Assembly (NCBI GenBank): GCA_963700635.1
Contig: CAVOYH010000003.1
Location: 128,001-192,000 of the forward strand
DNA: 64,000 nucleotides
Origin: an uncultured Bacteroidota bacterium
GTDB lineage: Bacteria > Bacteroidota > Ignavibacteria > UBA10030 > UBA6906
Direction: 5' to 3'
Numbering within the stretch: position 1 is the first letter of the stretch; the number at the start of each line of letters is the position of its first letter. The notes under the pieces are model-generated. The model was not told the origin of the DNA. It searched no databases and saw only the letters and a program-made list of their open reading frames with translations. The position numbers and the translations under genes were made by a program. This document shows, one piece after another, positions 10,215 to 42,911 of this stretch.

Positions 10215-11249
10215 CTACAACGAAAACTGAAATGAGAACCGGTGCACATTATTAAATATTCCGAAGGGAGTGATACAGTAGTCCACGGCGAGCCCCACGC
10301 CGCCGAGATCCTTACGAAGTCCGACGCCGTAGGTCATGGTGTATTCATCGCCGCCGCTGACGTATCCCGCCCGCAGGGCAACCAGGTCCATAAACAGGTA
10401 TTCCCCGCCGACACGGATCTGTTCCTGAAAATCACGCGGATGCTCTGCGTCAATGGCGAGCAGAAACTGGTGTTCGCCGGGATCAAGGTCCGTGAGATCC
10501 AGCACGTTCATCGACATCCCGATCCTGAATGTCAACGGAAGCTGGAACCCGTCCTTGATGTAGGTTACCTCTCTCGAGAAATTCCGCACTGTCATGCCGA
10601 AGGCCAGACTCTTGTACCCGGTATGGTAGAGAATGCCAAAGTCAAAGGCGAACACCCCGGTGCTGTTCGATGCCCGCACCGGATTGCCGCTTTCATCCAG
10701 CAGCAATGCCCCGCCGCTGCCCAATGCATTGACAACATCTCCGAGTGACTGGTTCACATACTTCACATTGCCGCCGATGGAGAATTTATCGTTTAGCGCG
10801 CGCGCATACCCCACGCCGAACATGTAACTTGTCGGTTTGAACGTGCCGAGGTCGAGATATCCCCGGTCATTGGGCCACCGGACAGTCTCCTCGAATGTCC
10901 CGTAGTTTGCCACCTGCAGCATAACACCCAGCACCCCGTACTCGCCTTCAAACGGATTAAATGCTGCAGAGGCGTACATATAGTTGATGTCCGCAATCCA
11001 GTTTGTCCGGGAGAGAAACACCGACGAGGCCCCTTGTAGTCGGGACATCCCCGCTGTGTTATAGAAGAGGGAAGACGACGTGCCCTCCACTGACGTAAAG
11101 GCTTCACCCAGCGCAACGGCCCGCGCATCCGGCAGAACATTCAGAAATTTCATGCCGGTTTGTGCGAGTTTCTTCTGTGCCACCGCCTCAGAAGGAAAGG
11201 CCCCGGCACAGAAGATCACCAGCACAAGACTTGTTACAATCGTTCTCAT
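10215..11249 (-). CDS. PorV/PorQ-family outer-membrane beta-barrel (module 1)
   Basis: Signal peptide; KLAQTGMKFL...ARAVALGEAF...YNTAGMS, WIADINY, FAFDFGILY, LPLTFRIG, EHPRD; ends in a barrel strand FSFQFSL. Confidence 0.88.
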   Translation of the reverse strand: MRTIVTSLVLVIFCAGAFPSEAVAQKKLAQTGMKFLNVLPDARAVALGEAFTSVEGTSSSLFYNTAGMSRLQGASSVFLSRTNWIADINYMYASAAFNPFEGEYGVLGVMLQVANYGTFEETVRWPNDRGYLDLGTFKPTSYMFGVGYARALNDKFSIGGNVKYVNQSLGDVVNALGSGGALLLDESGNPVRASNSTGVFAFDFGILYHTGYKSLAFGMTVRNFSREVTYIKDGFQLPLTFRIGMSMNVLDLTDLDPGEHQFLLAIDAEHPRDFQEQIRVGGEYLFMDLVALRAGYVSGGDEYTMTYGVGLRKDLGGVGLAVDYCITPFGIFNNVHRFSFQFSL

Positions 11250-11267
11250 GGGAAGCTCCGCTTTCCG

Positions 11268-13364
11268 TTAGCGTATCACAGACAATTTCTTGATCACGCG
11301 TTCACCGGTCCGGGTGTTCTCAAACACCACAATGTAGATTCCGCTCACGATCACCTGATTCGATGATGTCACGGAATTCCAGTACGCATCGCCGCTCCCG
11401 TCGGTGTGGTCAATCTCTTTGATCAATTCGCCCAGTTCGGTGTAAATCCGGATCTTGCAGTATCCGGGAATGTTGAAGAACGCAATCTTGTCCGGCTCCT
11501 GGTCGAACCGGAGTGTGGCAGCCGTTGAGGAGATACTGAACGGGTTGGGGACAATACGGATATCATTCATGGTCCAGCGGCCGTTTGTCCAGGTATTCGA
11601 CGTATCCTGATCCCCTGCCTGGCGCTTCAGGTAGGCGGGGTCAAACGACTGGGCATAAAGACGGCTGCTTGTGAGTGCGACGCCGGCCGGAGTGAGTCCG
11701 CCTCCTGTGTTAAGAGCGGGATCTCCCACAACCAGCACGTGATAGTAGTATGCCGGACCCCGGGCAGCGGTCATGTCATTGTAACTCCGGGCCGTCGATG
11801 GCAATTCGGCAAGCATGGTGTAGTCACCATCGTACCGTCCTTGAGCGCGGTAGACTCTGAATCCCTTCATGTTCGGATCGCCCGCATCGTAGACTTCCCA
11901 TTCCAACCCGATCTTGTCTCCCTGGGATGTAATCGTCAGAGATTTCGGGGGCATGGGGGGAGCGGCGAGGGTGTAGCCGGATTTGAAATTTGCCAGGGCC
12001 CGCCGGAAAGTCTGGAAGAGGGAGTCTTTTCCTGTGAGCACCGCGGTGTTCTTGATGAGGGCCTGGGCCGGGGTGGGGTTCGCCTTGTAGGCACGGCCAA
12101 CAGCAATCTGATTTTCGCGATCGAGACCGGACACGCCTTCGGCGAGCACGATCCGGACATCCTGTCCGGGCTCAAGTGTGTAGGGTCCGTAGCCATTTGC
12201 ATTGGACCAGCCGCCCGGCGTGCCGAGTGCGGGGTCGCCTGTCGGGGTAGCGAAGGCGCCGGTTGGCTCCACCCTGTCGGCGTGGCGCACAACATGTCCC
12301 TTCCGCATCCACCCCCACTTGGCCGTCATGCGGGCGGCGTTAAACATGTCGGCGTCAGGATTCGCCAATGGCTCATCGGAGCCCTCGTGCGAAGTCGTCG
12401 ATGGCTGGCTCAGATCATCCGTCGAGTCGGTCGCCGACCTGTCAGCATGTAACGTCACGATCCCGGCAAACTGCGAGGCACCCAAGCGTCCGACGGTATC
12501 CCGGGTATCGCCATACAGACTTGTTGCAGCAGGCGTCCAGATCGGCCCGCCAAGATTATCGTATTGTGTGAAGCCGGGATACTTGCCGTGCCAGGCATAC
12601 TGAACGCGCATATGCGGGGCGGTGTAGACGCCCGGGACATTCACGGCATCGTCCGGGTCATTCTTTACGCCGTCACCACGGACATCCAGCATCGTGTTGA
12701 TTCCCCAGCCTGTCGCATTGCCGATGACATAACGTGTCGTGGCGCATACCGCCAGACGGTACTGAAAATATACCACCACCGAGTCGAGCCGCTTGCCCGA
12801 TGTATTTGTAAACCGGTAGTCGCTGATGATGTAGTTGTCATGATACTGCTGGCTGAACTGAAAGATCTTCCGGGTCATGTCCAGACCGATGGAGGTCTTG
12901 ACCTCATTGAGAATCATCCGGTCGCCGGTAATGGTCGGGTCGATCCGTTTGATGTCAACAAGCTTGCCGTAGGAGACGACGCCGTCCACCGTGACCACAG
13001 GCGGCTCAAATCGTGAGACCAGCTCAAACTTCTGCGGGATAAAGGTATTACTCCCGCCGTACCGCGGGCCGACGCTGATCACCTTGTGCGGATAGACCGT
13101 GCCGTCAGCATCCTGATAGTTGGTGGTGCCAATCCACATCCCTTTTGCAGCCTGCATGTCCTGGTTTGTATAGATGGCGTTCCACTGGAGTCCGTCCTGC
13201 TGCTTCAGCACCCTCCCCTCCTCCTTTTCACACCCCATGTTCGCATACCAATTGTGCAGCGTGCCGACCGACATCCAGGTGGTCTCGTAATTCTGCGCCC
13301 ACGATGCCGGAGTAGTCACCAGAAGAACAATCCCGGGGACCAGAAACCTAACGAGGTTTTTCAT
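11268..13364 (-). CDS. Large secreted protein with FN3-like domain and atypical T9SS-like CTD (module 1 cargo)
   Basis: GAGG upstream of ATG 13364; signal peptide ASWA-Q; PPMPPKSL...LEWE...GFRVYRA...YYYHVL (FN3); C-terminus IRIVPNPF...FFNIPGYCKIRIYTELGELI...SGIYIV...KKLSVIR. Confidence 0.8.
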   Translation of the reverse strand: MKNLVRFLVPGIVLLVTTPASWAQNYETTWMSVGTLHNWYANMGCEKEEGRVLKQQDGLQWNAIYTNQDMQAAKGMWIGTTNYQDADGTVYPHKVISVGPRYGGSNTFIPQKFELVSRFEPPVVTVDGVVSYGKLVDIKRIDPTITGDRMILNEVKTSIGLDMTRKIFQFSQQYHDNYIISDYRFTNTSGKRLDSVVVYFQYRLAVCATTRYVIGNATGWGINTMLDVRGDGVKNDPDDAVNVPGVYTAPHMRVQYAWHGKYPGFTQYDNLGGPIWTPAATSLYGDTRDTVGRLGASQFAGIVTLHADRSATDSTDDLSQPSTTSHEGSDEPLANPDADMFNAARMTAKWGWMRKGHVVRHADRVEPTGAFATPTGDPALGTPGGWSNANGYGPYTLEPGQDVRIVLAEGVSGLDRENQIAVGRAYKANPTPAQALIKNTAVLTGKDSLFQTFRRALANFKSGYTLAAPPMPPKSLTITSQGDKIGLEWEVYDAGDPNMKGFRVYRAQGRYDGDYTMLAELPSTARSYNDMTAARGPAYYYHVLVVGDPALNTGGGLTPAGVALTSSRLYAQSFDPAYLKRQAGDQDTSNTWTNGRWTMNDIRIVPNPFSISSTAATLRFDQEPDKIAFFNIPGYCKIRIYTELGELIKEIDHTDGSGDAYWNSVTSSNQVIVSGIYIVVFENTRTGERVIKKLSVIR

Positions 13365-13419
13365 TCGCGCCTCAAGAAAAATACACATGTGGCTCCCGTA
13401 TGCACCCACAGGGAGCCTC

Positions 13420-16400
13420 TTAGAGATCTATCGAAAAACGGATTCCGTAAAAGATGTTCCGCGGGTTCAGAAACGTGAAGGTCTCCTGATTCGGCATGTC
13501 AATGTAGGCCTTGTCTTCAAGCGCCTGCCCGAGCTTGCCGGGATCCGCAGGTCCCATCTGTCCGTTTGCGAACTGATAATACTGTCCGTTCTCCGCAACG
13601 TAGTAGAACGGCCGTGTATGCTGGTTTTCGGCTTTCTGGAGATCCGAGAGAAGTCTCACCGCTACAATCGGCTGGAATGCAACACCTTCTTTGCGGACTG
13701 CGCCGGGACGATCATCACCGGGGACATTCACATACCCGACGGCTGTTCTGAATTGTTCCGGGAAGTCTGGCAGATGCAGTGACTTCATGTAGTTGTTGTA
13801 ATCATACGTGCCGAAGAACCCGTACGTTCCGGGAAAATACCGGAAATTCAGCAGGTTGGATACGTCCATGAAGAACTGCACGTTTGTCGGGCCAACTTTA
13901 AAATTCTTGCTGAGCCGCATGTCCACGTTCCAGTAATCCGTCCACTGCACATTGTATTCGAGTCCAGGGATTGAACCTCCGCCAGCCCATGTCGCGTACC
14001 GGCCGGAAGACCAGGTGCCCACGAGGTTCAGGCGCCATTCCCCGAGCAGAGACAGGCCGAGAAATTCCGGGCCGAGATTCGAGGGAGTGAAAAAATCCAC
14101 ATTCGCCCGGGCGAAAGGCCGCGGGATTGGTTTCTCCTGATACACATTCGACCGTTCGTAGTTCCGCTGCTCCACCGCACTCTCGTAGTAGGTGCCAAGT
14201 CCGAAGTAGCCCGTGGTGCGGACATCGTAGGTATAGTTAAAGAAACCCTGCACCCAGTTACCACGGTTCTTGTTCACCTGGATTTCGAAACCGCGGATAT
14301 CCTGATACTGATTGCTTGTCCGCTGGGTATAACTGACAAGCGAATTACGGCCGTAGTAGTTTACCGTTTTCGCCTGATTTGACACGTCTTTGTAGTAGGC
14401 AGCAATCCTCAGCAGATACTCGTCAAACAGACTGTGTTCGTATCCCAGTTCATACTGTACGGTTCTGGGGAACGGCGCTCCCGGATCAGCGATACTCATC
14501 ACCTGTCTTGTGTCGGTGTACCTGCGGATCAGGAAGAGGTTCAGCGGATCCGGAATCTGACGGAAGTGCCCGTAATTAAAGAACAGCTTTGCCTCATCGG
14601 AGATCGGGAACGCAATCGCAAGCCGCGGGCTCACCGTCAGCGTGGTCGGAGCTGAGACTCTCACCAGCGCGGTGTCGAGCAGGCTCTGGCCGGAAAAAGC
14701 GCTGTTGAACATGTCATCGGCGTATTCATACCAATCCCCGTTGGGATTCAAATACTCCAGTCTCAGTCCGACATTCGCAATCATCCCTTCGAATTCGAGT
14801 TTGTCCTGGAGATAGAGAGCGGCCCGGATTGGATAGTTGTGCCATGCGGTGTTGTAGCGGCCGCTTGGCAATGCGATATCTTCATTCCGTGACCGGACCC
14901 AGTTGTCCGTGTAGGCAAACTCCACGCCCGCTTTGACCTGATTATACTTGTCGAACTGTGTGGTCAGATCGAATTTCAGGCTCCATGTCGCCACGAGACT
15001 CGTATCACGGGAGTTGCTCATCCCAACACCGGTTCTCATGCCGGTGATTCCGGAACTCTCCGTATTATATGGCCAGTACCCGAATGGCGTTTCGTCAACG
15101 AAGTATCCGGGAACGATTTCGTACTTCTTCTCCTTGTCACGCAACGAACCGGGATTTGTGTTTGTCCCCTGGGAGTACTTCTGAAACGTGGCTTCGTAAA
15201 AGGTTACCGGACCGATTGCGTGTGAGAATTTTGCTCCGAGCATCTCGATGTCTGTTGTCGTCGGAGCCCAGTAGTCCGTCCCGAAAATCCTCGCATCGAC
15301 GTAACCCGACACAGAGTTGAGAGAGGTGAGCGCTTCTGCAATACTTGAGGCCGACTGGAAGATTCCTGGATTTCCGAGATTGTTGTCGTTGGTACCCTGC
15401 ATCTGGGCGCGCAGGTAGGAGCCCATCAGCTTCATGCCCGGCCCAACGTCGGATGTCAGCTTGATCTGGCCGCTGTATTCACGGTATGCCGGACGGGAGA
15501 GGGGAATAAGATACTGTGTTGCCTGCTGACGGTATGAGGCAAAGAACCGCAGGTTGCCGAGTTGCTTCCGATACTGCCGGGACCGGACCCCCAAAACCCA
15601 TATCCACGTCCCAGTCAGGATCTTTGATTTCCGGCTGACGACGGTGCTCCCAGAGCCACAGTTTCTGGACCGCCGAGGGGGAAAGATCATTAGTGGGATC
15701 TGCGTCACTCAACAATTTCCTTGAAATACTCTTCCATCCTTCAAAATCCGCGTACTGATCACGCGTCCACCTGTCCCATGAGGGTTGTCCATCGGAACCA
15801 AGCGAAGCCTGCGTTCCATCCCAGCATACGGCATCATCAACAAACGGACGGATCCAGTACGAGTTAAAATCGTAAATGGATGGGCCAAAATGTTTGGGGG
15901 CGGCCGGACGGTACCGGCCGATAAAATTAAAACTGTATTTGCTGGTGCTGCCTTCGCGGGTCACGACGTTCACAACGCCTGAACGGAGGTTGCCGTACTC
16001 TGCGTTGAACCCTCCGGTCTGAACCTGGACGTCCTGTATCGAACTGATACTGATCCCGGTGAACGGCTGGTTCGTACGTTCATCGCGCAGGGTCATCCCG
16101 TCCACAACAAACGCAGCCTGGTCAGCTCCACTGCCGCGGATCACAAGCCCCCCCTGAATACCCGCCTGAAGGGTGACCACACTGGCGACGTCGGTGACCG
16201 GGAGTTTCTCAATCTCATCGATCTCGATATTCGCCCGGCTGGCCGCGACGTCCCGTTGAACGACCGGACGCGTCGCAACGATGGTCACTTCTTCACCGGC
16301 TATGACCTCTTCGCCAAGGCGCAAGTTCAGGTCGGTTGTCTGGTCAATATCGACCCGGACGCCTGTCATGGATGTTGCCTTGTATCCCACCAGGGCAGCG

Positions 16401-16624
16401 GTAATTCTGTAACGTCCCGGGGGGATATTCAGTATGACGAAATACCCGTCAGGATTTGTCGCTGCGCCGAGCAGTGTCCCTTCGATCACAACATTCACGC
16501 TGGGCAACGGCTCACCGGTCTGTGCGTCACGCACCGTCCCAGCAATTTTTCCCGTTGTGCCGGCAAAACTGATCGATGAGACAACGATCAGGGCAGCACT
16601 GCAAAGAGTAAGGCACACTCTCAT
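13420..16624 (-). CDS. TonB-dependent receptor (CarboxypepD_reg-like N-domain, plug, barrel), module 1; one +1 frameshift near 15568
   Basis: Track ORFs 15479-16624 and 13420-15708 are two halves. GTTGKIAGTVRD, EEVTIVA (TonB-box position), IRGSG, GGFNAEYG; YLQDKLEF...NVGLR, SPRLAIAFPI, YGIRFSIDL. Junction GTA TCG [G] AAG CAA CTC restores GGPVPAVSKQLGNLRFF. Confidence 0.88.
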
Positions 16625-16822: not shown

Positions 16823-17827
16823 TTATTCATAGTCACTTACATGGATTTCGCGCTGATGGCCGGAATTCCGGAACAGGATAGTTCCATCACGGGACGATAT
16901 GTGCGCAGGTGTGTCATTACTCCCGGCAAATGATTCCCTCACTATCTCTCTTCCCCCTTCCGTAACAACATGGAGCGTGGGATCTGCATAACGAATACCC
17001 TCTGCCCCTGCCAGAATCCGTTCCATGACAAATCCTGCCGAAGTGCCTGCGCACGTCACACCGGTGATCACGCTCCCGCCGGGCGGTGATGTCCATTGAG
17101 AACACTCTCCGGATGGATCCAGCGGTCCGAACATCACTTCGTTTCGATCTGCCACAACAAAACGCCCGCTGCGAGCGTCAACAGCGGCGTTCCTCATCAG
17201 CAGCGGAAGAACTCTGACGCTCGCTCCCCGGACATCAAGAATTTCCGTCGCAACGGTTGGCAGCCCGGATCCCGACGCATAGGAAGAAACTATCACGGTG
17301 GCCCCATCACCGGATAAATAGATTTCGGAACCCGACTCAAAAGCGAGCACACCGGTCCAGAGCTCCTCCCCGGCCACCGAGTACATCACCACCCGTGCGC
17401 GATCGAAGGAAGGTCCGGAAACCAGAAAGACCATCCGGTCTCCGGCAACCGAACACTTGAGTATCCGTTCATGGTCCGGGGCGGCATCACCGAACGGGCG
17501 CCAGATGTTCACAGTGTTTCCCCGCGCATCAAGGAACTCAACGACTCCCGCGAACGCATCCACAACAACGGCTTCACCGGCATTGTCGCTCACCAGCACA
17601 CCGGGAAAGGGAGAGCCATACGGCACTAATTTTTCTATGGTATGCAGCAGAACGCCGGAGCGGGTGAGGATTCGCGCACTCCAGCGGCTGGCTTCAGGTT
17701 CTCCTTTTATCCCTTCGGTCGTCACCAACGATTTAATCCGGAAATTCCCGCGGCGTGATTCCAGATCCTCAGCAGAAAGTACGGCTGAGACGCCGAGAAC
17801 AACACACAGCATCAGAACAGGTTTCAT
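16823..17827 (-). CDS. Exported hypothetical protein, beta-rich/propeller-like, no CTD
   Basis: ATG overlaps the TGA of the M23 gene (ATGA, 17824-17827); signal peptide MKPVLMLCVVLGVSAVLSA. Confidence 0.7.
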   Translation of the reverse strand: MKPVLMLCVVLGVSAVLSAEDLESRRGNFRIKSLVTTEGIKGEPEASRWSARILTRSGVLLHTIEKLVPYGSPFPGVLVSDNAGEAVVVDAFAGVVEFLDARGNTVNIWRPFGDAAPDHERILKCSVAGDRMVFLVSGPSFDRARVVMYSVAGEELWTGVLAFESGSEIYLSGDGATVIVSSYASGSGLPTVATEILDVRGASVRVLPLLMRNAAVDARSGRFVVADRNEVMFGPLDPSGECSQWTSPPGGSVITGVTCAGTSAGFVMERILAGAEGIRYADPTLHVVTEGGREIVRESFAGSNDTPAHISSRDGTILFRNSGHQREIHVSDYE

Positions 17828-20127: not shown

Positions 20128-20189
20128 AAGCCGCTCCTGTCCGATGTGCTCTCTCCTGCGCACGATTCTTCGCGCAGTCATTGCTGATC

Positions 20190-24573: not shown

Positions 24574-24602
24574 TTGACTAAGGATGGGGGTTTGTCTATA
24601 TT
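24574..24602 (+). promoter_or_regulatory. Sigma70-type promoter for the module 2 operon
   Basis: TTGACT-N17-TATATT. Confidence 0.7.
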
Positions 24603-24726
24603 TTTACACAGTAACGGTGATCCTAGCCCCTCCGTCACATCCACAGATTTGCAGGAATGAGACCTTTTTTTCCCTTCTCAATCTCCCAGTAGACGAATGG
24701 CATTAACATCAACTAGAAGGTACACC

Positions 24727-30500: not shown

Positions 30501-31095
30501 CACCGATACCTCAACCATCCGCGTACTCGTGGACAAGGCCCAGACGGATAGTATGTGGAGACCGGGACGGGAGATTGTCATCGTCACACCGCCCAAATAC
30601 GCTCCCCAGTCCCCCATCCCTGTGCTGGTCTCAGTCACGTTCTCCGCAACCCCCGGACAGGCATTAGTCCTTCCCACACAGGGTAACGTGTTCGAGGTCA
30701 AGACCTCGAAACCGTTTGCGGCCGGGGATCAATACACCTTCACGAGTACGTCGTCCAAATTTGATGCCGCCCGGGCCACCAATGCCCTGGATCAGATTCG
30801 TGTGGTCCCGAATCCCTACGTCGGCTACAGCGACATAGAGCAGCCGGGAGCAAGCTCGATCCGCCGCGGAGAAAACAAACTGCAGTTCCGCAATCTCCCT
30901 CCAAAGTGCACGATTCGTATCTACTCGCTTGTGGGTGAACTCGTCGATACAATCGTGAAGGATGATGGCAACAGTTATGTTGACTGGCAGTTGCTCTCCT
31001 ACGAAGGCCAGCGGCTTGCCTACGGCGTGTATATCTATCATGTGGATGTGCCCGGTGTGGGCGAGAAGATCGGCCGGTTGGCGCTGATTAAGTGA
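27598..31095 (+). CDS. Large secreted protein with Asp-rich Ca-binding repeats, FN3-like domain and atypical T9SS-like CTD (module 2 cargo)
   Basis: Signal peptide; GFKFLESP, DDDDDGINDE, DEDGDWDPEKDDVGIDG, DESDQIGLTSF, PPPKP...VTLYWD...FEGYKIYRS...NGKTYYYAVASYD; IRVVPNPY...FRNLPPKCTIRIYSLVGELV...YGVYIYHV...RLALIK. Confidence 0.85.
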   Translation: MKKTMIMLLAFLAIVVLRTAATAQEIDWKTFDPKRATPDEWQRVLSFMEQNERRLAKTTGEAREIRSLIIRGNKITTVVYNYGSITRPNTLGNVADLVWNRLGYGFEFTPLVGATVTDTSGRQVSILNDGMWLANQGGYSPDNTVKWGWLPKAGYAASGQNDIAAWSHRSDVGGDLTRRPHSWPESWYNQTLGRYVWPAFLGNDATAPDEEAYFVVDDYTNAKYPYYPFPDDSSKRGLGLDMECRFFQFNNPLAEDIIFLVYRVTNKSPKTINKVYFGMYGDPHVGGPADYGDDLAYFIPPRGVLADPFPQRARSMVYAWDDNGTGDGGLTCGYFGFKFLESPTNSANGRDDDDDGINDESPFNDAGFYIDGVTFPLNTGIEDTIKYIKVFGKIKARWAGDEDGDWDPEKDDVGIDGIAGTGDFGEGNKKPDIGYDANGILVSEPHFGIRDVDESDQIGLTSFNALGYTNGVPNVPKNDVFFYQLLSSDSIAIDQVLFRTPSDNIFLYGSGPFPLAPGGTQRFSIALMMGENLPDLLLNAETAQRVLEANYLFAQPPPKPNVRAIPGDRKVTLYWDAAPEIAVDPLTATQDFEGYKIYRSEDYTFSDVYTITDANGAAFLPNAMIDATGQRAQFDLVNEWSGLHPVEYIGRGVKYNLGNNSGLVHEFVDSTVTNGKTYYYAVASYDHGFDSLGVQLPPTESQIAITKDPVTGVLSFDQNTVSAVPGPLPSGQTKAIVDNDFMPRRVKGISTGSMTVKVMEDVAVLDGAQYNIDFRTAASKVVYDIQSLTFHTDNFISRDTVFVPLSRKNLITSTVTVKDAAGATVNPSLYRIDVPGGRIRGVAPGNLPANAAFSITYQYYTVFESNRLAAEDDNAVFDGMRVYVKDVPLGIDSANSGWASKNNTSLTARVHKTIALPTAPFRPAPLDFQIQWNRTDTTANGKWAFPGDTLLNNSGRRVVVCPFRIINVTDTSTIRVLVDKAQTDSMWRPGREIVIVTPPKYAPQSPIPVLVSVTFSATPGQALVLPTQGNVFEVKTSKPFAAGDQYTFTSTSSKFDAARATNALDQIRVVPNPYVGYSDIEQPGASSIRRGENKLQFRNLPPKCTIRIYSLVGELVDTIVKDDGNSYVDWQLLSYEGQRLAYGVYIYHVDVPGVGEKIGRLALIK

Positions 31096-31195: not shown

Positions 31196-32251
31196 ATGAA
31201 TAGTAGCTACTGCACACGGGGCACACAGGCGGTGGTGCTTCTGCTGGCGTTCGCTGTTCTGAGCACCGCTTCTGCGGATGCCCAGCTGTTCCGCAGCACC
31301 GCGAAGGTCGGCACGACAGCAGCCCAGTTCCTGAAGATCGGTGTCGGCGCCCGCGCCCTGGGCATGGGCGGGGCACAGGTGGGAGTCACGGGCGACATCA
31401 GCGCCATCTACTGGAACCCCGCCGCTCTCTCGCGCATGAACGTGGTCAGCGAACTGACCTTTAACCATGCAAACTGGCTCGCCGACATCAACTACGACTT
31501 CGCCGCAGGCGTGATGCCAATCGGCGACCTGGGCACGTTCGGACTCTCGGTCATCTCCCTCCGCGTACCCGAAGAGATCGTCACCACCGTCGCCAACCCC
31601 GACGGCGACGGCCGGCGCTGGGACGCTTCCTCACTCGCGTTCGGACTCACCTACGCGCGGAACCTGACGGACCGCTTCTCCATCGGGCTCAACTTGAAAT
31701 TTATCCATGAGAGTATCTGGAGCGAGAGTGCATCCGGGTTTGCCATCGACGTCGGCACACTGTATATCACGGAGATTCCCGGCCTCACGATCGGGGCGTC
31801 GATCGCGAACTTCGGCACAAAAATGCAGCTCGACGGCCGTGATCTCAATTTTAACTACGATCCGGACGACAATGCCGGCACAGGGCCGAACAACATCCCC
31901 TCCAAACTCGAAACCGGAGCGTATGACCTTCCGCTCACCTTCCGGATTGGTCTTGCCTGGGACCTCTACCCCGTTGATGAGTTCAGAACAACATTTGCGG
32001 TGGATGCAACACATCCGAATGACAATGTCGAATATGTCAACTCGGGCCTTGAAGTTGCATGGCAGGAAATTCTTTTCGGCCGGATCGGGTACAAATCACT
32101 CTTCCTGCGCGACACCGAGCAGGGGCTTACATGGGGACTCGGCGTTCACTACGGCATTCCAAACGTGGCAACAGTAAAACTGGACTACGGTTTTGCGGAT
32201 TACGGCAGACTGAAGAACGTGCAGTACTTTTCGCTGGGAGTACGACTGTAA
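31196..32251 (+). CDS. PorV/PorQ-family outer-membrane beta-barrel (module 2)
   Basis: KVGTTAAQFLKIGVGARALGMGGA, YWNPAAL, WLADINYD, FAIDVGTLY, LPLTFRIG, HPNDN; ends FSLGVRL. Confidence 0.9.
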   Translation: MNSSYCTRGTQAVVLLLAFAVLSTASADAQLFRSTAKVGTTAAQFLKIGVGARALGMGGAQVGVTGDISAIYWNPAALSRMNVVSELTFNHANWLADINYDFAAGVMPIGDLGTFGLSVISLRVPEEIVTTVANPDGDGRRWDASSLAFGLTYARNLTDRFSIGLNLKFIHESIWSESASGFAIDVGTLYITEIPGLTIGASIANFGTKMQLDGRDLNFNYDPDDNAGTGPNNIPSKLETGAYDLPLTFRIGLAWDLYPVDEFRTTFAVDATHPNDNVEYVNSGLEVAWQEILFGRIGYKSLFLRDTEQGLTWGLGVHYGIPNVATVKLDYGFADYGRLKNVQYFSLGVRL

Positions 32252-32285: not shown

Positions 32286-32326
32286 CAAAGAGAGAAGAAC
32301 CGGCACGTTCTTCTCTCTTTGGTTTT
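32286..32326. terminator. Terminator between convergent modules 2 and 3, possibly bidirectional
   Basis: Perfect 15-bp inverted repeat CAAAGAGAGAAGAAC (32286-32300) / GTTCTTCTCTCTTTG (32307-32321), followed by GTTTT. Confidence 0.75.
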
Positions 32327-35376: not shown

Positions 35377-36411
35377 TCAGAATTTTACCCCGAATGTCAG
35401 ATAGTGGACATTCTTCAGCCGTCCCCAATCCTGGTAGGCATAGTCCACTTTGAGTTTAAATTCCCCCACGATCCGGTAGTGTACCCCGATACCTGCGGTG
35501 AACCGTTGTTCCGTATCCCGTTCGAACAGCGACTTCCATCCGCCGCGCAGGAACACGATTTCATTCCAGGCATATTCCACACCGGCATTGATGTACTCGG
35601 TATTATCGTTCGGATGTACGGCGTCGATGGCCGTTGTCAGGCGGTGTTCATCCGCCTTGACGACATCCGCCGCGACCCCGACCCGGAAGATAAGCGGAAG
35701 GTCAAACGATTCGAGCTGAACATCGGTATTGATGAGGTTTCCCTCCCCGCCTCCCACCTGTGTTATCATCAGGTTGTCGCGCCCCTCGAGTTTCATCTTC
35801 GTGCCGAAGTTCGAGATACTCGCCGCGAGACGGAATTCATTGAGTATCGGGATTTTGTAGAGTGTACCGATATCCAGGGCCACTCCCGTCGCCGACATAT
35901 TCCAGAGGTATTCGCGAAGGTATTTCACATTAAGCCCCAGGGAGAACTGATCGGTCAGGTTACGGGCATAGCTGATCCCGATGGCCATGGCGCCCGCGGA
36001 GAAGTACTCTCCTGTCCCTTCCGGTTGGGCTGTGGTCCGTACCAGCATCTCGTCCATCGACAACACACTGACAAATGCGCCCAGTGTCCCGACATCGGGC
36101 AGATAGGTGGCAAACGCGGCATAGTCAAAATTGACGTCAGCTATCCACCGGACATGATTAAATGTCGCCTCGCTTGAGTACAGATTTGCCATCCCGCCGG
36201 GATTCCAGTACATCGCAGTGATATCGTCGGCGACCGCCGTAAAAGCACCGCCCATGCCGATGGCCCGTGAACCAACGCCGATCTTAAGGAACGGCGCTGC
36301 AGACGTCCCCGTTTTCGTAAGGTTCTGCGTCAGTGCGACTGGCAGGAGGACCAACACCAGACACGCGGTCATGGCAACAACCCTCATTCCCCTGCTTCCT
36401 GTGCTCTTCAT
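35377..36411 (-). CDS. PorV/PorQ-family outer-membrane beta-barrel (module 3)
   Basis: KTGTSAAPFLKIGVGSRAIGMGGAF, YWNPGG, WIADVNFD, ALDIGTLY, LPLIFRVG, HPNDN; ends LTFGVKF. Confidence 0.9.
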   Translation of the reverse strand: MKSTGSRGMRVVAMTACLVLVLLPVALTQNLTKTGTSAAPFLKIGVGSRAIGMGGAFTAVADDITAMYWNPGGMANLYSSEATFNHVRWIADVNFDYAAFATYLPDVGTLGAFVSVLSMDEMLVRTTAQPEGTGEYFSAGAMAIGISYARNLTDQFSLGLNVKYLREYLWNMSATGVALDIGTLYKIPILNEFRLAASISNFGTKMKLEGRDNLMITQVGGGEGNLINTDVQLESFDLPLIFRVGVAADVVKADEHRLTTAIDAVHPNDNTEYINAGVEYAWNEIVFLRGGWKSLFERDTEQRFTAGIGVHYRIVGEFKLKVDYAYQDWGRLKNVHYLTFGVKF

Positions 36412-36453
36412 ATGTTTATCTCCAGGGTGCATTCTGTGTGCGATGCAGTGACA

Positions 36454-36503
36454 ACTCCGCCCCCTCTCCCCGTGCCACGACACGGGAAAAGCGGGAGCGG
36501 AGT
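36454..36503 (-). other. Long intergenic stem-loop without U-tract between cargo gene and porV-like gene
   Basis: Minus strand ACTCCGCTCCCGCTTTTCCCGTGT-CGTG-GCACGGGGAGAGGGGGCGGAGT folds into a ~22-bp stem with G.U pairs that form only on the sense strand. Confidence 0.55.
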
Positions 36504-36507
36504 GGCA

Positions 36508-39500
36508 TTACTTGATCAGCGCAAACTTAAGAATTTTCTCTCCAATTCCGGGCGCGTCGATATGGGCGATATAAACGCCGTAGGCAACGCCAAAACCATC
36601 CCGGTTCAGGAGGTTCCAGTACTCGCGTCCGCTCTCCATCCCCGACTCATGCTCGATCGTCTGCACAACATCCCCGTTGATCGTGAAGATCCGGATGGTA
36701 CAGCGTGATGGAAGATGTTCGAAATATATCCGACGTTCACCGCGTGTTGCGCCGGGGAGTCGGTTTGTGGGCTCAATGTCGCTCAGGCCGACGTACGGGT
36801 TAGGCACCACGTAAATGTTGTCCATCCGCGAGGAGGCAAGAGTATTGTCCACACTCGCACCTTCTGTTTTCAAGGTGAAGGTATCCGACGCATCAAACGG
36901 ACGGCGGGTGGCTATGAGCAGAATGTCGCCATCACCGGGAATTCGTGGCGTAATGCTGGTGTCAGCGGGTTTTGTGATCACGACACCCCAGGTTGTGGTA
37001 TCCGTGGGGAGACCTGTGGCCCCGGGCTTGAAGAGCACTATTTCCTCCCCCGTACTCCATTGCAGATCCCGCGTAGCCGAGTTCTCCGCAAGAAACGTCT
37101 GAATACGCCGGGGCGAGCCGGTCGTCACATCAACTACGGCATACCGCACCGGCACGCGAATGAGTCCGCCGCTCTGCACGAGCGCCGTATCGATATTCTG
37201 GGAAGAGAACCGGATTTCGTAGTCCGCCGGCCAGAGGCGTTTCCGCGTCCCGATGGACGTGAGTTTCGCAATGAAGTTATAGTTGCTTTTGCCTTCAATC
37301 CAGCGCGAGCGGACTGAGTCGTATGCCAGGACCGGATGGTCCTCGATTTGTAATGCCACCCCATCAAACACCGGATTGGAATCTTCTGCCTTAAGGGAAC
37401 GGCTCTCAAACACAGGGTAATACCGATATGTCACGGTATATGTTCCGTTGGCCGGCATCGCGCTTGCGGCTGTCCGGCGGATGGCCCCGCGCTGGAAATT
37501 CATAAGATAGTCCACGCCGTAGGTGTACGTCGTGCCGTTTACACCGGTCACCCTGAAGAAACTGTCGTTGGCTATGTTCGGACGCGACAGTGCCGAGTAG
37601 TTCGTGTCGAACGGCACAAACGTCTCAGTAGTGCTTCGTGTGTCAAGCACCGAATAGTTCTTGCCACGATCCCTGCGGTTTCCATTCTGGAATGAATCTG
37701 CAAAACTGATCTGATACTGACCCCCGCTCCGGATCGCGAGATCGTTCAGAATCCGGAATTGCACCGGACCCGTTCCGATCCCCCGATCATGGGTGATGTC
37801 TTGTGAAAGGATCGCCGGGGCCTTATAACCGCTCGTGCGCGGGCCGGGCACAACCTGGGCGGTGTTCACATCAAATTTGAGTGTTGATGTGATGGGATCC
37901 ACGGTGATCTTCTTTGTGGTTTCGGTGGGAGGAATCCCGACCGAATCACCATGATCATACGCAACAACGGCGTAGTAATACGTCTGTCCGTTGATGACGT
38001 TATTCGAATCCACGAACGAATGCACCAGGCCACGGTTGTTGCCCAGAAAGTACTGGATGCCGCGGTCCTGATATGGGACGGGGTGATATCCTTTCCAGGG
38101 GTCATCCACTTCCTCGGACCACCTGCCGTCTTTGTTGATGTCTACAAAGGGTTCACCAGCATCATATCTGCCATTGTTGTTCAGATCCGTGTACTTCTCC
38201 TGGCGTCTGGCGATGTCCCACTTCGCCTCAACGCCGCTCAGTTCAGTCAGGGGCCTGGTGAGGAATCGGGATCCTTTTCCGTCAGTGACGGTCTGAATGT
38301 CATTAAAGCCCGGGTCCGTGCTCCGGTAGACCACATAGCCCTCAAAATCTTCTCCGGTTATCGGGTCAACACTTTCCTCGGCTATGGTATCCCAGTAGAG
38401 TGTGACTTTTTTGTCGTCCGGCACGGCGGTCATGCGCGGCGTGTTCGGGGGCCGGAAGAACTGGTAGTTCTTGTTATAGATGGTCTGCACCGTTTTCGCC
38501 GTGGTAAGGAGGCCGTCAAGATTTTCGGCAAGGAGAAGTGCCATGGAGATCCGTTTGGTTTCGGCACGCGCAAGAGAAATATATCCCGAGCCAAAAATAA
38601 AAACGATGTCTGCGCTCTGCTGGATCGCCCCGAAGTTGCGCGGGATGGAGCGGTTCCACATGGATTCGTCGTTGGAGATCCTGTCGGTATTCCATGACCA
38701 GCTGTTGAAGCTCGTGAGCCCGATCTGATCTGATTCGTCCAGGTCGGTGAGTTCAAAATTGGGTTCCCCCGGATACAGGGGATCAAGTGATCCGTCAGGC
38801 AGGCGTCTTCCTGCATCGGGAACACCGTTGCCTTCTCCCTGATCCTGGGAGTTGGGCACACCGTCGATCCCGACGTCATCCGATATCGGACTCCAGTCCC
38901 CATCGTTGTCAATCCCGTCATCCTGCCGTTCGTCGATAAGCCCGTCGCCGTCGTCATCTCTGCCGTTGTCCGGATCACCGGGACTCTCGAGAAACTTGCA
39001 GCCCAGGTACCCCAGGGGAAGACCTCGCGCCCCGGTCATATCCGGATCCCAGAAATACACAAGACTCCTCGAGTAGACGGGGATATCGTCCACCCGGCCG
39101 AGTGTATCATAGGGCGGGATAAAAAAACCGTTGTCGTCCGTGTTCTCCGGCGACCCACCTCCCAGATCGGGATCACCATAGATGCCGAAGAACAGACTGT
39201 CAAGATCCTTCTCGCTCGTATTGGTGATTGTGTAGACGAAGAAGATGGTGTTCTCTGCGAGAGCATTACTCCATTGGAACGCGCGCCCGTCAATCTGGAT
39301 GCCGATCCCTTTCCGTGCGGAATCACTCGGAAACGGAAAGTATGGGAATTCCGTGTTGAACCGGTCGTCCATCGCCCAGAACACTTCGAGATCGGAACTC
39401 AACACATCCTGAGAGAGGTAGCCGGGCCAGACGTACCTGCCGAGTGTCGGATTGTACCAGCTGCGCGGCCAGCTGTCCGGTTTGCCGTCGCCATTAACAT

Positions 39501-40075
39501 CATCCGCCGGATTTGAGGCAATACGCGGCTGATCCGGGTCAGCGTATCCCGGTAATGGTTGCCACTGCCAGAGAGTATCGCCGGTAGGATTCACTTCCCG
39601 CAGGGCGGGGTAGTCCCAGAGTGCATCGGAGATGATGTGGAGGCGGCGGGCAGGGTCGCCGGCAGAGGGAACGGATGCCCCCACAATCGGACAGAACTGA
39701 AATGCGTAGTCCAGATTCCGCCAGACGAGGTTATTCACCGACCGGAGTGCATCGTAGCCGGGCGCAATGCCTCCGTAATTGTAGAGTTCAACCGCAATTT
39801 TGTTCCCGTTCATAAAAAAAGACTTGCGGTCCTTCTGTGCCGTTACGGCGGTGGTTTTTGCCGGTGGTCGCTGATCGGGCTTCATCTGCGTGTCCGGGAC
39901 TCCGGCAACGGGCGTCGTGGACTGTGAAGATGCCGTCGTTCTCATGTACTCCTTCACCGCCCGCTGGGCGCGCTCAGAATTGCTCGTCCGGCGTCTCGGC
40001 GCTTGCGCCGCCGATTACGACACCCAGTGCCACAGCCAGCAACCAATTAAACCGGGTACCTGCTGAAGTTTTCAT
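36508..40075 (-). CDS. Large secreted protein, paralog of 27598-31095 (module 3 cargo); +1 frameshift just after the signal peptide (~39976)
   Basis: ATG 40075 after AAGGA gives MKTSAGTRFNWLLAVALGVVIGGASA-ETPDEQF; TTC [T] GAG joins it to track ORF 36508-39957. Motifs GCKFLESP, DDDGDGLIDE, DESDQIGLTSF, FEGYVVYRS, IYVVPNPY...KFALIK. Confidence 0.85.
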
Positions 40076-40148
40076 TCACATTCTTCCTTTTTGCCTGCTT
40101 GCTTCATCCTTCGAATCCTCTCTGCCTTCGACCATCATGAGCGGGTTG

Positions 40149-42911
40149 CTAGAATTCCACGTTCATGCCTATTCTCACTTCACGGGGCGGGGCGTAGTAG
40201 TCCGGCCGCGCAAACCACTCGCTGGCGGGATGGATGCCGGGAATCTCTCGCGCAATCTTGTCCGTCTGCTGGGCAGTTCCCTGGTTCTCCACGAGGGTGT
40301 AGGTCGCCCGGCCGGTGTCAGTATACACAAACCGTTCAATCAGACTGTCAAACAGATTGTAGACCTTCAGGAAACCGGTGATACGGAGTCCGTACACGGC
40401 AAAGGTCTTGTCCGCCAGGAGGTCAACACGGACCTGTGCCGGCTTGCGCGCGCTGTTTGTTTGCAGGTACACCGTCTGGGTGAGGATCTGCGGCGTATAT
40501 GGCAGGCCCGTACCGACCCGGCCAACGAGCGTCACGTTCCAGTCGTTCGACTCTCCAACCGATACCGTTGCATTCAGCGTGTGCGATTGATCCCAGTCAA
40601 GATAGACCGGCACTTTCTCACTCTGCCGGCCCGAAGACAGGTCCACAAAGAATGCATTCACATCCGTCTCGTTGCCTTCCGCAACCTGGAAGGTGTAATC
40701 CAGCGTAGCCCCGACAAGGTCACCGGGCGCACGACGTTTCGTGATGGAAAAGGTCAGCCCCTTGACGTTGCTGTAATCCTTGTTGACATATTTATAGTAT
40801 GTTTCATCTCCGCTGATGCGGATCTGCTGCTGGGCAAGGAGGTCACGCACATCCTTGTAGAAGCCCGTCGCCGTGAACGAAAGATTGTCCAGAAGTTGCT
40901 GTTGCAGACCGATTTCGTATGTCACGGTTTTCTGCGGATTCAGGTCGGCATTCCCGAAGCTCGGCGTCCCGGTGGAGAAACTGTACTTGAAGTCCGGGTT
41001 GGCGTAGAGGTAGGAGAAAGGCGGCATCTGGAAAAAGTGCCCGTATGAAAAGTGAATGATTCCCCTGTCCGTAATCGGAAAGGAAACGCCGACACGAGGA
41101 CTCCACTGATGCTTGCCTTTGGCCTTTGCAAGAAGAGTCGTGGGATCCACCGTGGACGGAAGAGTGGGACTGTTCGGCGAGGGATAAAAGATGTCTGTCG
41201 AATGGCTGGCGTCCGCGCTGAAATAGTCGTAACGGAGACCGACGTTGAGGATCAGACTCTCGAACTCCATCTTGTCCTGCAGGTACGCAGAAAATTCCGT
41301 CGGCTTACGTGTATAGGCGTCATGGTTGGACGTGTTGGTGCCGGGGATAGTAGGGGTGAAGTACCGTACGGTATCGCGCAGAACAACAAAACTGTCATAG
41401 TACAGCGCATGCGCTTTGTATTCGGCCCCGAGTTTTACCTCGTGATTTGACGTCAGCTGGCTGGTCACATCAAACTTGCCGCTCCAGGTGGCGGACCGCT
41501 GATAGTAGTGTCCGGGCCTGGTGCCGCCGGAGAGGAACGTATACGGCGCCACAGCCACATTTTTGTAGTCCGGCTGGTAGCGCGGATCCGCGTGGAGGGC
41601 GCCAAGGTCCATGCCGGTCCCGGCCGAATATTCCACCGGACTTCCCGAGGCATCCAGCAGGGGATACAGGTACTGTTTATAGTCATTCAGATTCAGGGAG
41701 CCACGCAGCGAATAATATGTCGTCGTGTTGAGCGTATGTCGCAGCTCGAGGGCGTTCAACAACCCCCATTCATTGTTGTTGTAGTTCGCATCAGGGTTGT
41801 ACTTGTAGCTGTGGGAATATCCCTTCCAGGAAGATCTTGAATAGAGCACATCGTAACGGATTTTTGCCGTCGAAAAAGGTGAAAAAGTCAGTTTTGCCGT
41901 TCCACTGAATTCACGGCTGGGGTTCATCGGAACAAGTGCACTGTCGCCGGTCTGATACACCGTAATGTCGTTGGGATTCAGAGGATTCTTGTTGGCATAG
42001 TCCGCCGGTGTGTGCTGGCGGATCCCGTACAGCCATCCTTTTTCGTCGTCAAAGCGTCCGGAGACAAAAAAGGTGAGCGCGTCAGAGACAACCGGCCCGT
42101 TAAACGTGAGTTCGGTGACCGAGTGGCTGAACGGCTTGATATTATCAATATTGGTGAAGATCTCCTTGTGGCTGCTCACATAGTCGCCGGTATAGAACGA
42201 GAGACTCCCTCCAAACCGGTTGCCTCCCTCTTTGGTGACGGTATTCACGACCCCGCTGAGCGCGTTCCCATATTCGGCATTAAACGTTCCGCTGACCACG
42301 GACAGCTCCTGGATGGCGTTGGTCGCGATCTGAACGGTCTTGGTGTTGTCAAACGGATTGGAAATCGAAACGCCGTTAACCGTGTACGAGATCTCATTGG
42401 ACCGGCCGCCACGGATATGGAGCTCGCCGCCGGCACCCTGCGTGATCCCGGCCTGCAGCGAAAGGATCTGTGTAACACTTTCCACGGGAAGCGCCTCGAT
42501 GGACGCGGCGTCGATGTTGGTGTGCGAGGAAGTCAGGTCCCGGCGAATCATCGGCGCCTCGGCCTGAATCTCCACCGTTTCGAGCGCGATCACATCGGTG
42601 GAGAGCCGGACATCCAGCCGCGTGGTGAAGTCGACTGACACCTTCACATTCGAAAACCGCTTTTTCTGATACCCCACGCCGGATGCGACAACCGTATAGA
42701 CGCCCGGAGGGATGTTGATAATCACGTACTCGCCTTCCACATCCGTGCTTGCACCCATCGTGGTGCCCTCGATGAAGACACTGACACCCACCAGCGGTTC
42801 GCCGGTCTCAGTAGCCTGCATACGCCCGGCGATTTTGCCGGTCGTGCCGGAGAGAACAAACACGGGAAGAAGGAGAATCAAGAGAAGTACAGAACAGATA
42901 CGTCGTGGCAT
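40149..42911 (-). CDS. TonB-dependent receptor (module 3)
   Basis: GTTGKIAGR, ETVEIQA, HIRGGR, GTFNAEYG, YLQDKMEF...NVGLRYDYF, SPRVGVSFPI, PREVRIGMNVEF. Confidence 0.92.
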   Translation of the reverse strand: MPRRICSVLLLILLLPVFVLSGTTGKIAGRMQATETGEPLVGVSVFIEGTTMGASTDVEGEYVIINIPPGVYTVVASGVGYQKKRFSNVKVSVDFTTRLDVRLSTDVIALETVEIQAEAPMIRRDLTSSHTNIDAASIEALPVESVTQILSLQAGITQGAGGELHIRGGRSNEISYTVNGVSISNPFDNTKTVQIATNAIQELSVVSGTFNAEYGNALSGVVNTVTKEGGNRFGGSLSFYTGDYVSSHKEIFTNIDNIKPFSHSVTELTFNGPVVSDALTFFVSGRFDDEKGWLYGIRQHTPADYANKNPLNPNDITVYQTGDSALVPMNPSREFSGTAKLTFSPFSTAKIRYDVLYSRSSWKGYSHSYKYNPDANYNNNEWGLLNALELRHTLNTTTYYSLRGSLNLNDYKQYLYPLLDASGSPVEYSAGTGMDLGALHADPRYQPDYKNVAVAPYTFLSGGTRPGHYYQRSATWSGKFDVTSQLTSNHEVKLGAEYKAHALYYDSFVVLRDTVRYFTPTIPGTNTSNHDAYTRKPTEFSAYLQDKMEFESLILNVGLRYDYFSADASHSTDIFYPSPNSPTLPSTVDPTTLLAKAKGKHQWSPRVGVSFPITDRGIIHFSYGHFFQMPPFSYLYANPDFKYSFSTGTPSFGNADLNPQKTVTYEIGLQQQLLDNLSFTATGFYKDVRDLLAQQQIRISGDETYYKYVNKDYSNVKGLTFSITKRRAPGDLVGATLDYTFQVAEGNETDVNAFFVDLSSGRQSEKVPVYLDWDQSHTLNATVSVGESNDWNVTLVGRVGTGLPYTPQILTQTVYLQTNSARKPAQVRVDLLADKTFAVYGLRITGFLKVYNLFDSLIERFVYTDTGRATYTLVENQGTAQQTDKIAREIPGIHPASEWFARPDYYAPPREVRIGMNVEF

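Follow-up and report, generated by a model that had tools for sequence, protein, structure and literature searches.

TonB-dependent transporters of the Bacteroidia rely on lipoproteins of the cell surface, such as SusD and BtuG, for the catching of their substrates. In the T9SS (type IX secretion system) of Porphyromonas gingivalis, the retained C-terminal domain (CTD) of PorU stays bound to the PorV barrel and that of PorZ to the PorQ barrel, as described in PMC10202324, where it was also published as a hypothesis that cognate PorV-like barrels protect and hold a retained CTD. Type B cargo is bound to PorP/SprF proteins, and the clustered barrel has been proposed as its anchor in the cases of PG1035-PorP and SprB-SprF (PMC9143113; PMC10202324). 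In the BamA-BamG-BamH complex of Bacteroides, a FadL-family barrel beside a larger barrel holds a surface protein by extracellular loops (PMC12578637), and in Proteobacteria the Slam/type XI loci combine a DUF560 barrel, a TonB-dependent receptor and a two-part cargo, either TbpB-like or a hemophilin (PMC8406197). By analogy, these last two systems make a three-part outer-membrane unit plausible. Here we describe three copies of a gene triad, encoding a TonB-dependent receptor, a signal-peptide protein (the middle protein, MID) and a PorV/PorQ-family barrel, in a stretch of 64,000 nucleotides from an uncultured Bacteroidota bacterium of the Ignavibacteria (assembly GCA_963700635.1, contig CAVOYH010000003.1, positions 128,001 to 192,000), referred to below as the window.

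Each triad may constitute a self-contained three-gene outer-membrane module. The middle protein would be exported by Sec, by means of its signal peptidase I-type (SPI) signal peptide, and then by the T9SS; its CTD, similar to those of PorZ and PorU, would stay uncleaved and non-covalently bound to the neighboring PorV-family barrel, which would thus be a dedicated membrane anchor. As the order of the genes suggests, the anchored passenger would then work for the transporter encoded next to it, and would bind or process some macromolecular substrate on the outside of the cell; a SusD-like lid role is possible and is the weakest step of the scheme. We give a probability of about 0.5 to the full mechanism, in which a T9SS cargo is held by its own PorV paralog and works with the adjacent receptor, and consider the anchoring by a dedicated PorV paralog reasonably supported. 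The first-pass annotation of this DNA had proposed that each PorV paralog holds its T9SS-secreted neighbor on the surface beside the receptor, as a lid or capture subunit. The holding now has in its favor the class of the CTD, the family of the barrel and the likeness of a modeled complex, and the contact with the receptor, or the lid, has gene order to go on.

Layout and conservation of the triads

The three triads lie within 10215-42911 of the window, which has a G+C content of 56% and comes from a contig of 1.92 Mb. In each, the genes follow one another on one strand in the order receptor, MID and barrel, with 10 to about 100 bases between them. T1, on the minus strand, consists of a receptor of about 1068 codons (13420..16624), read in two overlapping open reading frames (ORFs) for an N part with a CarboxypepD_reg-like domain and Plug (15479-16624) and a C part with the barrel (13420-15708), of the cargo MID_1 (11268..13409, with a likely start Met at 13364 that gives 698 amino acids) and of PorV-like_1 (10215..11249, 344 amino acids). 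T2, on the plus strand, has a receptor of 956 amino acids with CarboxypepD_reg-like N-terminal domain, Plug and barrel (24697..27567), the cargo MID_2 (27598..31095, 1165 amino acids) and PorV-like_2 (31196..32251, 351 amino acids). T3, again on the minus strand, has a receptor of 920 amino acids (40149..42911), the cargo MID_3 (36508..40075, with a signal peptide ORF at 39974-40075 and the main ORF at 36508-40014) and PorV-like_3 (35377..36483), which probably begins at a Met located some 24 codons inside the ORF. The public records name the parts 'hypothetical protein' and 'PorV/PorQ family protein'. ORF calls and family models confirmed the order, strands and locations earlier reported for all three copies; the T2 receptor is where it had been placed, its quoted start, 24727, being an internal Met in an ORF that begins at 24697.

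PorV-like_2 and PorV-like_3 are 51% identical to each other and PorV-like_1 is 28-30% identical to either; identity is 40% between receptors 2 and 3, and 38% over the full length between MID_2 and MID_3. The divergence is parallel in the three parts, with T2 and T3 as the closer pair and T1 as the outlier for barrel, receptor and cargo, which is in line, on three copies only, with the co-divergence of components for which the first-pass annotation had suggested a check. The statement that the copies are divergent and not a recent duplication also holds, as they are only 28-51% identical.

The conservation of the triad was examined by one profile scan of species-representative genomes with the MID_2/3 alignment. 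This gave 387 relatives, from which the best 80 loci, one per species, were kept; they come from metagenome-assembled genomes (MAGs) with titles that mostly read Ignavibacteria, Ignavibacteriales, Melioribacteraceae or 'Bacteroidota bacterium'. MAGs titled Ignavibacterium album and Melioribacter sp. are among the relatives. ORFs of these loci were classed by phmmer against the window proteins, and a locus was taken as testable if it had at least 600 bases on the side in question, the others breaking off too near the cargo gene. The MID_2/3-type cargo has a receptor gene directly upstream in 74 of 74 testable loci and a PorV-like gene directly downstream in 70 of 70, both neighbors being present in all 66 loci testable on both sides, with median gaps in these other species of 16 bp (receptor to cargo) and 32 bp (cargo to barrel). 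The pairing of paralogs is kept as well, MID_2-type with PorV-like_2-type (70/70) and MID_3-type with PorV-like_3-type (7/7).

The genes around the triad are more varied. Upstream flanks (n=55) included phosphohexomutase-type genes (21), an NHL-repeat CTD protein that is a T9SS cargo (12), RodA (5), an amidase (3), others (5) and unassigned genes (9); downstream flanks (n=65) included an HhH-GPD glycosylase (31), T9SS-CTD proteins (18) and unassigned genes (16). Annotation of eight loci with Pfam placed mreBCD-PBP2, MurJ and alanine racemase among the neighbors. The HhH-GPD base-excision glycosylase that follows the T2-type triad stands on the same strand (loci L025, L036, L049, L058, L069 and others), and the phosphohexomutase-type gene upstream sits on the opposite strand; both flanks are probably inherited synteny. 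Since the order of the three genes is constant while the flanks vary between lineages, the triad travels as a unit, and its conservation in other genomes, which the first-pass annotation had left to be checked, is borne out for the MID_2/3 type by the 66 testable loci among the best 80 of 387 relatives.

That the genes are neighbors by accident, or come from a recent local triplication with no functional linkage, has a negligible probability. There are only three copies in the window and T2 and T3 are convergent neighbors, but chance adjacency was rejected on the 66 of 66 loci of other species in which the order persists, the gaps being short and the flanks variable, and it is further at odds with the low identity of the copies and with the presence of the unrelated MID_1 passenger, bearing the same CTD, beside the same two partners. 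For the T1 type, a comparison by eye of the homologue listings of MID_1 and PorV-like_1 (119 non-self rows each) gave 18 exact coincidences in the length of the longest contig, an indirect sign of adjacency, 8 of which are contigs of 8.5 kb or less. Sources of MID_1 homologues include candidate division KSB1 and a record named Melioribacteraceae bacterium 4301-Me.

By family models, the triad receptors are shown to be genuine TonB-dependent transporters. Receptors 2 and 3 score above the Pfam cut-offs for Plug and TonB_dep_Rec_b-barrel (PF00593 102.7 bits, Plug 43.7 and CarbopepD_reg_2 61.1 for receptor 2; 106.6, 47.1 and 62.4, respectively, for receptor 3), and receptor 2 also matches in part the Pfam family OMP_b-brl_4 (63.9 bits). 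The N part of receptor 1 is above the Plug cut-off (35.2 bits, with 69.1 for CarbopepD_reg_2), and its C part has no Pfam match but shares 26-28% identity with the other two receptor barrels. The plug motifs reported earlier, of the form G(G/T)F(N/S)AEYG, were found as GGFNAEYG, GTFSAEYG and GTFNAEYG in receptors 1, 2 and 3. On the SusC/RagA model TIGR04056, the three receptors reached 60.3, 77.1 and 72.7 bits against a cut-off of 368.25, most of these bits stemming from the N-terminal part. A receptor profile run against the PDB had 19 matches, among them PhuR and CirA; of SusC homologues it found only an N-terminal domain on its own (the NTE in 9hfj_A, E 2.7e-5) and no full-length SusC-type chain.

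The scan took in 32 ORFs, namely those without overlap among the 73 of at least 150 amino acids, with every such ORF inside 10215-42911, and gave no match to a SusD-type family in Pfam or NCBIfam. The same ORFs gave no Pfam match to DUF560 or TbpB_B_D. The absence of a SusD-like gene after the receptors, as first noticed in the bare sequence, is thus upheld for the ORFs scanned, and none of the MIDs has a lipobox.

The shared CTD and its neighboring barrel

All three MIDs have an SPI signal peptide and none belongs to a Pfam family. The likeness of MID_1 to MID_2 and MID_3 is confined to about 125 residues at the C-terminus, with 33% and 30% identity. When an alignment of 78 sequences for MID_1 was compared by hhalign with one of 67 sequences for MID_2/3, the tail alone was aligned, over 123 columns (probability 99.3, E 8e-21). 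Homology between MID_1 and MID_2/3 outside the CTD was considered on account of short collinear BLAST patches (E 3e-5 and 2e-4) and discarded, hhalign reporting the CTD only; the two passengers are treated as unrelated. The order of gene types claimed for the three copies stands, with the amendment that the MID_1 passenger is no homologue of the other two. The CTD is the sole part common to unrelated passengers, as expected if the CTD-barrel pair is the functional link.

The tail occupies 11271..11558 (-) in MID_1 (residues 603-698), 30793..31092 (+) in MID_2 and about 36511-36810 (-) in MID_3. A Foldseek search with the MID_2 CTD, a region of moderate model confidence, found the substrate CTDs of solved T9SS complexes, 8glk_D (TMt 0.65) and 8gl6_D (0.64), with probability 1.00, and the top Foldseek match overall for the tail was PorZ; the CTD of MID_1 was modeled at high confidence. 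Best matches in the NCBIfam library were to the C-terminus of PorZ (E 1e-5 for MID_1, 3.7e-5 for MID_3 and 4e-3 for MID_2) and to that of PorU (E 9e-4 for MID_2, and 0.016), at scores of 12.8-24.2 bits that are far below the cut-offs of 260 and 420. The family profile of MID_1 found the PorZ CTD 5m11 in the PDB (E 6.6e-4), the only solved CTD below E 0.001.

The standard CTD models did not recognize the tail. On the type A model TIGR04183, MID_1 reached 17.9 and MID_2 14.2 bits against a cut-off of 23, with no listed match for MID_3; no match to the type A family PF18962 was listed for any of the three; and the type B model PF13585/CHU_C was matched by MID_2 alone, at 14.3 against 27. A hidden Markov model (HMM) of the tail gave 101-130 bits for the triad CTDs, which were in its training set, and 19-35 bits for the type A cargoes of the window, these being matched at E values from 1e-4 to 7e-10. 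In the window and the 80 loci, this HMM gave a single match of 40-50 bits and none of 50-80 bits. These findings support the tail as a T9SS CTD by fold, of an atypical subfamily nearest to the CTDs of PorZ and PorU and below the cut-offs of types A and B, in keeping with the atypical CTD of the first-pass annotation. A T9SS is presumably present in this genome, since eight proteins of the window are above the type A cut-off of TIGR04183.

A single Cys residue occurs in a C-T-I-R-I-Y motif of the CTD in 67 of 67 sequences of the MID_2/3 family and in 64 of 78 of the MID_1 family; it is residue 1104 of MID_2 (about 30907-30909) and residue 636 of the 698-amino acid form of MID_1. A disulphide of this Cys with a partner was rejected because conserved Cys residues are absent from the alignments of barrels and of receptors. 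As seen by eye, the predicted signal-peptide cleavage sites of MID_1, MID_2 and PorV-like_1 to PorV-like_3 expose an N-terminal Gln; a 'Q-rule' for N-terminal Gln in Bacteroidetes is the subject of PMC5837995.

The third gene of each triad encodes a member of the PorV/PorQ family. PorV-like_1, PorV-like_2 and PorV-like_3 scored 195.9, 211.2 and 225.2 bits on NCBIfam NF033709 (cut-off 90), and all failed the equivalog models, with 73-81.2 bits against 250 for PorV (NF033710), 86.1-92.7 against 220 for PorQ (NF033711) and 45.9-103.4 against 325 for PorV2 (NF052325). PorV-like_1, in particular, reached 92.7 for PorQ, 73 for PorV and 45.9 for PorV2. The sequence of PorV-like_2 by itself matched the PorV protein of F. 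johnsoniae, 6h3i_F, with an E value of 5e-10, and the profile of its family did so with 9.4e-21. PorV-like_2 and PorV-like_3 also match the BamG model weakly (27.6 and 27.8 bits against 250). The family scores support an assignment of the barrels to the PorV/PorQ family as members that are not orthologues of PorV or PorQ.

A complex was modeled from residues 30-351 of PorV-like_2 (68-row alignment) and 1040-1165 of MID_2 (67-row alignment). The pair scored 0.92, the best of three unrelated controls having 0.00; the CTD was placed on the neighboring barrel, the runs agreed in at least 89% of contacts, and the pLDDT of the partner was at least 75. The mark applied is reached by 58 of 80 solved complexes and by 2 of 110 mismatched pairs, a rough benchmark since own alignments were used, and the pass may reflect memorized structures, since PorV is found together with a CTD in solved complexes (8gl6, 8glk and others). 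The model supports the view that the pair looks like PorV with a CTD, a likeness and not the binding of this copy.

The same CTD-barrel evidence applies to a dedicated shuttle, which is a rather unlikely alternative. The barrel would collect the CTD of its neighbor at the T9SS translocon, the cargo would then be cleaved and either released or attached elsewhere, and the receptor would import its ligand or product. Transient and permanent binding look alike in this evidence, PorV has been described as a shuttle (in a reference cited in PMC12578637), and secretion of type B cargo needs the clustered PorP/SprF protein (PMC10202324), as SprF is needed for SprB. Moreover, the MID_1 passenger can work with no private barrel, as some of its relatives end in ordinary type A CTDs. 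However, the closest matches of the triad CTDs come from PorZ and PorU, the two cargoes known to retain theirs; a one-to-one pairing of cargo and barrel genes, kept in 70 of 70 loci, is what one would sooner expect of a stable partner; and for type B the clustered barrel proved to be an anchor, as stated in PMC9143113.

Export of the middle protein by the receptor itself, with the PorV-like barrel receiving it in a T9SS-independent unit, in the style of Oar-PopC of Myxococcus, appears very improbable. A requirement of a TonB-dependent transporter for protein secretion is documented (PMC6434023), and the receptor gene always stands directly before the cargo gene (74/74). The triad receptors carry the CarboxypepD_reg-like domain, and receptor 2 the partial match to OMP_b-brl_4. 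This architecture is presumably linked to Oar-type proteins. Against such a role, the cargo ends in a domain of T9SS-CTD fold homologous to type A CTDs, and export by the T9SS is simpler because the window is full of T9SS cargo. To our knowledge, PopC has no such partner barrel.

Passengers, genomic setting and possible function

Two passenger families are joined to the common tail. An AlphaFold model of MID_1, from the 78-row alignment, had a pLDDT of 90.9 and a pTM of 0.87, and shows, after the SPI signal peptide, a beta-supersandwich (about 28-415), a helical hairpin (416-461), an FN3 domain (473-549) and the CTD (603-698). A SusD/TPR fold was rejected for MID_1, as the model is all-beta apart from the one hairpin; the premise that the middle protein is not of SusD/TPR type therefore holds for MID_1, the one well-modeled MID. 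In Foldseek, its partial matches were FN3 tandems and, at TMq 0.22-0.25, the beta-sandwich regions with which GH94 phosphorylases and GH116 enzymes begin at their N-termini. By sequence profile, the FN3 domain resembles its counterparts from pectate lyases and from one CBM6 protein in the PDB. The alignment came from an exhaustive representative search that gave 2045 cluster representatives at 50% identity (E <= 0.001), a part of which match the passenger domain only and bear a standard type A CTD. Scanning of 27 longer relatives showed a type A CTD above the cut-off in 16, BNR/Sortilin-type propellers in 8 and a right-handed beta-helix/DUF1565 in 9, so the MID_1 passenger is a module of T9SS proteins of glycan-active type that has the special tail in some members only. 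In terms of the proposed mechanism, the T1 passenger would be a beta-supersandwich plus FN3 of a kind that also occurs in T9SS proteins next to propellers like those of sialidases and beta-helices like those of pectate lyases.

MID_2 has an SPI signal peptide, an N-terminal region of about 700 amino acids with acidic, calcium-site-like repeats of the D-x-D-G type, an FN3-like segment, beta-sandwich domains and the CTD. Its AlphaFold model, from 9 sequences, was poor (pLDDT 46), with good confidence only at about 730-1060 and CTD blocks at about 30-65, and it failed over residues 50-732, which makes its global Foldseek matches meaningless except for the CTD. The MID_2/3 profile had no match in the PDB (best E 0.69), and searches of the ESM Atlas with both passenger regions found unnamed clusters only, whose taxa serve as leads and no more. 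The two cargo families have at least 1795 and at least 1098 matches.

In this window T1 heads a ten-gene same-strand run, with seven further genes at 3-10184 (-). The first of them, 30 bp after PorV-like_1, encodes an IPT/TIG lipoprotein (8904..10184, -) with the lipobox LSSC followed by KEDPP; then come two T9SS-CTD cargoes, one with GHL10, FN3 and CTD, an NlpC/P60 plus SH3 peptidase, an L-Ala-D/L-Glu epimerase-type enzyme, NagX and a protein of class A beta-lactamase fold. Between the triads (17824-24644 and 34724-35335), M23 peptidase, GH18 and NHL-repeat domains are present in T9SS type A cargoes, and a cytoplasmic-type D-Ala-D-Ala dipeptidase is encoded there too, which continues the theme of cell-wall degradation. 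The T1 run looks like a locus for utilization of murein peptides and amino sugars, and cell-wall debris may be the substrate here, a lead only that follows from the place of T1 at the head of such a catabolic run. The transfer of this context-derived substrate to other genomes was rejected, as the flanks of T2-type triads change between lineages.

Quite unlikely, in our view, is a surface structure not concerned with uptake, that is, an envelope, adhesin, surface-layer or biogenesis module with the TonB-dependent barrel as a structural or energized partner. It would fit the keeping of the T2-type triad in the genomes of all 80 species, its housekeeping and cell-wall neighbors (RodA 5/55, phosphohexomutase-type 21/55, HhH-GPD 31/65, and mreBCD-PBP2, MurJ and alanine racemase), the great size of MID_2/3, a beta protein of several domains whose acidic repeats resemble calcium sites, and the precedent of BamA-BamG-BamH, in which a FadL-type barrel tethers a surface protein for biogenesis, as described in PMC12578637. 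On the other hand, the receptors have an ordinary plug and barrel with a conserved plug motif, T1 heads a catabolic run, the MID_1 passenger family is joined elsewhere to domains of glycan-enzyme type, and the conserved flanks in related genomes may be inherited synteny only. Capture for the adjacent transporter by an anchored cargo is the reading retained.

Several points weigh against this reading. Most T2-type triads elsewhere lie among housekeeping genes (mreBCD-PBP2-rodA, polA, glycosylase) and not in a degradative locus, a setting that fits a core envelope role as well as nutrient capture. The survey covered MID_2/3 orthologues only, of 38-82% identity and nearly all from Ignavibacteria-type MAGs, and counts of the 66/66 kind are inflated because of shared ancestry among the loci; the T1-type receptor beside MID_1 was seen in this window only. 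For the long N-terminal region of MID_2/3, no assignment to a fold or family came from Pfam, the PDB or the ESM Atlas, the CTDs are far from the PorZ and PorU cut-offs, and the controls of the complex model were unrelated proteins, not non-cognate triad partners. Retention of a CTD is not readable from sequence, and it is from likeness to PorZ and PorU that we infer the anchor; the coupling of cargo and receptor and the lid role are read from gene order alone. To call the barrels 'private paralogs' is to presume that the genome also has a general PorV outside the window. Finally, if the frameshifts described next are real, T1 and T3 could be decaying, two of the nine triad genes being interrupted.

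The T1 receptor has an apparent 1-base frameshift within 15479-15708, where its two ORF frames are one base apart, and another separates the signal-peptide ORF of MID_3 from the main ORF (39960-40020). Assembly error is the likeliest cause of both, given the source contig of 1.92 Mb and the six fetched relative loci in which triad genes are similarly broken. As for regulatory signals, a promoter-like site with 10/12 consensus matches, the best of the region, lies ahead of T2 (24574..24602, +). A terminator-like hairpin with a 15-bp stem (32286..32321), assigned to neither strand, lies between convergent genes 35 bases past PorV-like_2, and another strong hairpin precedes T3. The numbers of promoter-like and hairpin sites in the region were not above those of shuffled sequence, the position of the T2 promoter alone being suggestive.

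Two further observations concern the surroundings. An ORF of 364 codons with a signal-peptide-like start (16823-17917, -) lies between the T1 receptor and the M23 cargo and has no match in Pfam or NCBIfam. At 51476-59419 (-), a bacterial alpha-2-macroglobulin of 1696 amino acids adjoins a penicillin-binding protein 1C (TIGR02073, 641 bits), which is a typical pairing.

Comparison with known systems

No description of a unit of receptor, cargo and PorV paralog was found in the open full-text literature, subscription journals and supplements being outside the search. Its halves are known, namely the cargo-specific PorV-like barrel and the receptor with a surface partner; the conserved joining of the two, by which a receptor is linked to such a barrel, and the distinct CTD class appear to be new. 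The triad is a concrete candidate for substrate capture in T9SS-using phyla that lack SusD, and may replace the SusC/SusD nutrient-capture pair in Ignavibacteria-type bacteria. To the cargo-specific PorV-like barrels known so far (PorQ, PorP/SprF) it would add those of a large new class of CTDs, with members in the thousands, and it offers an annotation rule for 'hypothetical proteins' beside 'PorV/PorQ family proteins'. Should the pair of CTD and barrel be a portable anchor, a surface-display handle could also be made of it. A wider view, which we hold tentatively, takes the triad as a general T9SS-assembled alternative to SusCD in SusD-poor lineages of the Fibrobacteres-Chlorobi-Bacteroidetes (FCB) group, with a retained CTD class, private PorV paralogs and a stable three-protein complex. 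The CTD-barrel pair would then be a modular surface-display adaptor that docks interchangeable capture modules beside TonB-dependent transporters. The lineages concerned would be the Ignavibacteria and KSB1, with Zixibacteria and Fidelibacterota as weaker leads.

The triads share with the PorU-PorV and PorZ-PorQ pairs the nearest CTDs, which are the best library and PDB matches of the triad tails, and the NCBIfam family of the barrel. They differ from them in barrels that fail the PorV and PorQ equivalogs, in passengers unrelated to PorU or PorZ, and in having cargo and barrel genes side by side with a receptor in front, in at least three sets per genome. With type B cargo and PorP/SprF they have in common the clustering of a cargo gene with a dedicated PorV-like barrel; however, the triad CTD fails the type B model and the triad barrels match PorV and not PorP/SprF models. 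Furthermore, the known PorP/SprF pairs come with no TonB-dependent receptor, whereas the triads have one.

The BamA-BamG-BamH complex, unlike the triads, is devoted to biogenesis and not transport, its BamH is a lipoprotein, and it has no CTD. The Slam/type XI loci resemble the triads in combining a receptor, a capture protein made of an N-terminal effector and a C-terminal targeting domain, and a dedicated barrel for surface display, but they belong to unrelated families in other phyla, the triad barrel being of FadL/PorV type and its cargo being exported presumably by the T9SS. In SusC/SusD (RagA/RagB), as in the triads, a transporter with the same type of N-terminal domain is followed by the gene for a surface-exposed partner, and T1 heads a catabolic run as SusCD pairs do. 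The triad receptors, in contrast, reach 60-77 bits against 368 on the SusC/RagA model, and their partner is no lipoprotein and, in MID_1, is all-beta instead of TPR. This partner would be delivered by way of a CTD, for which a third gene, that of the PorV-family barrel, is needed.

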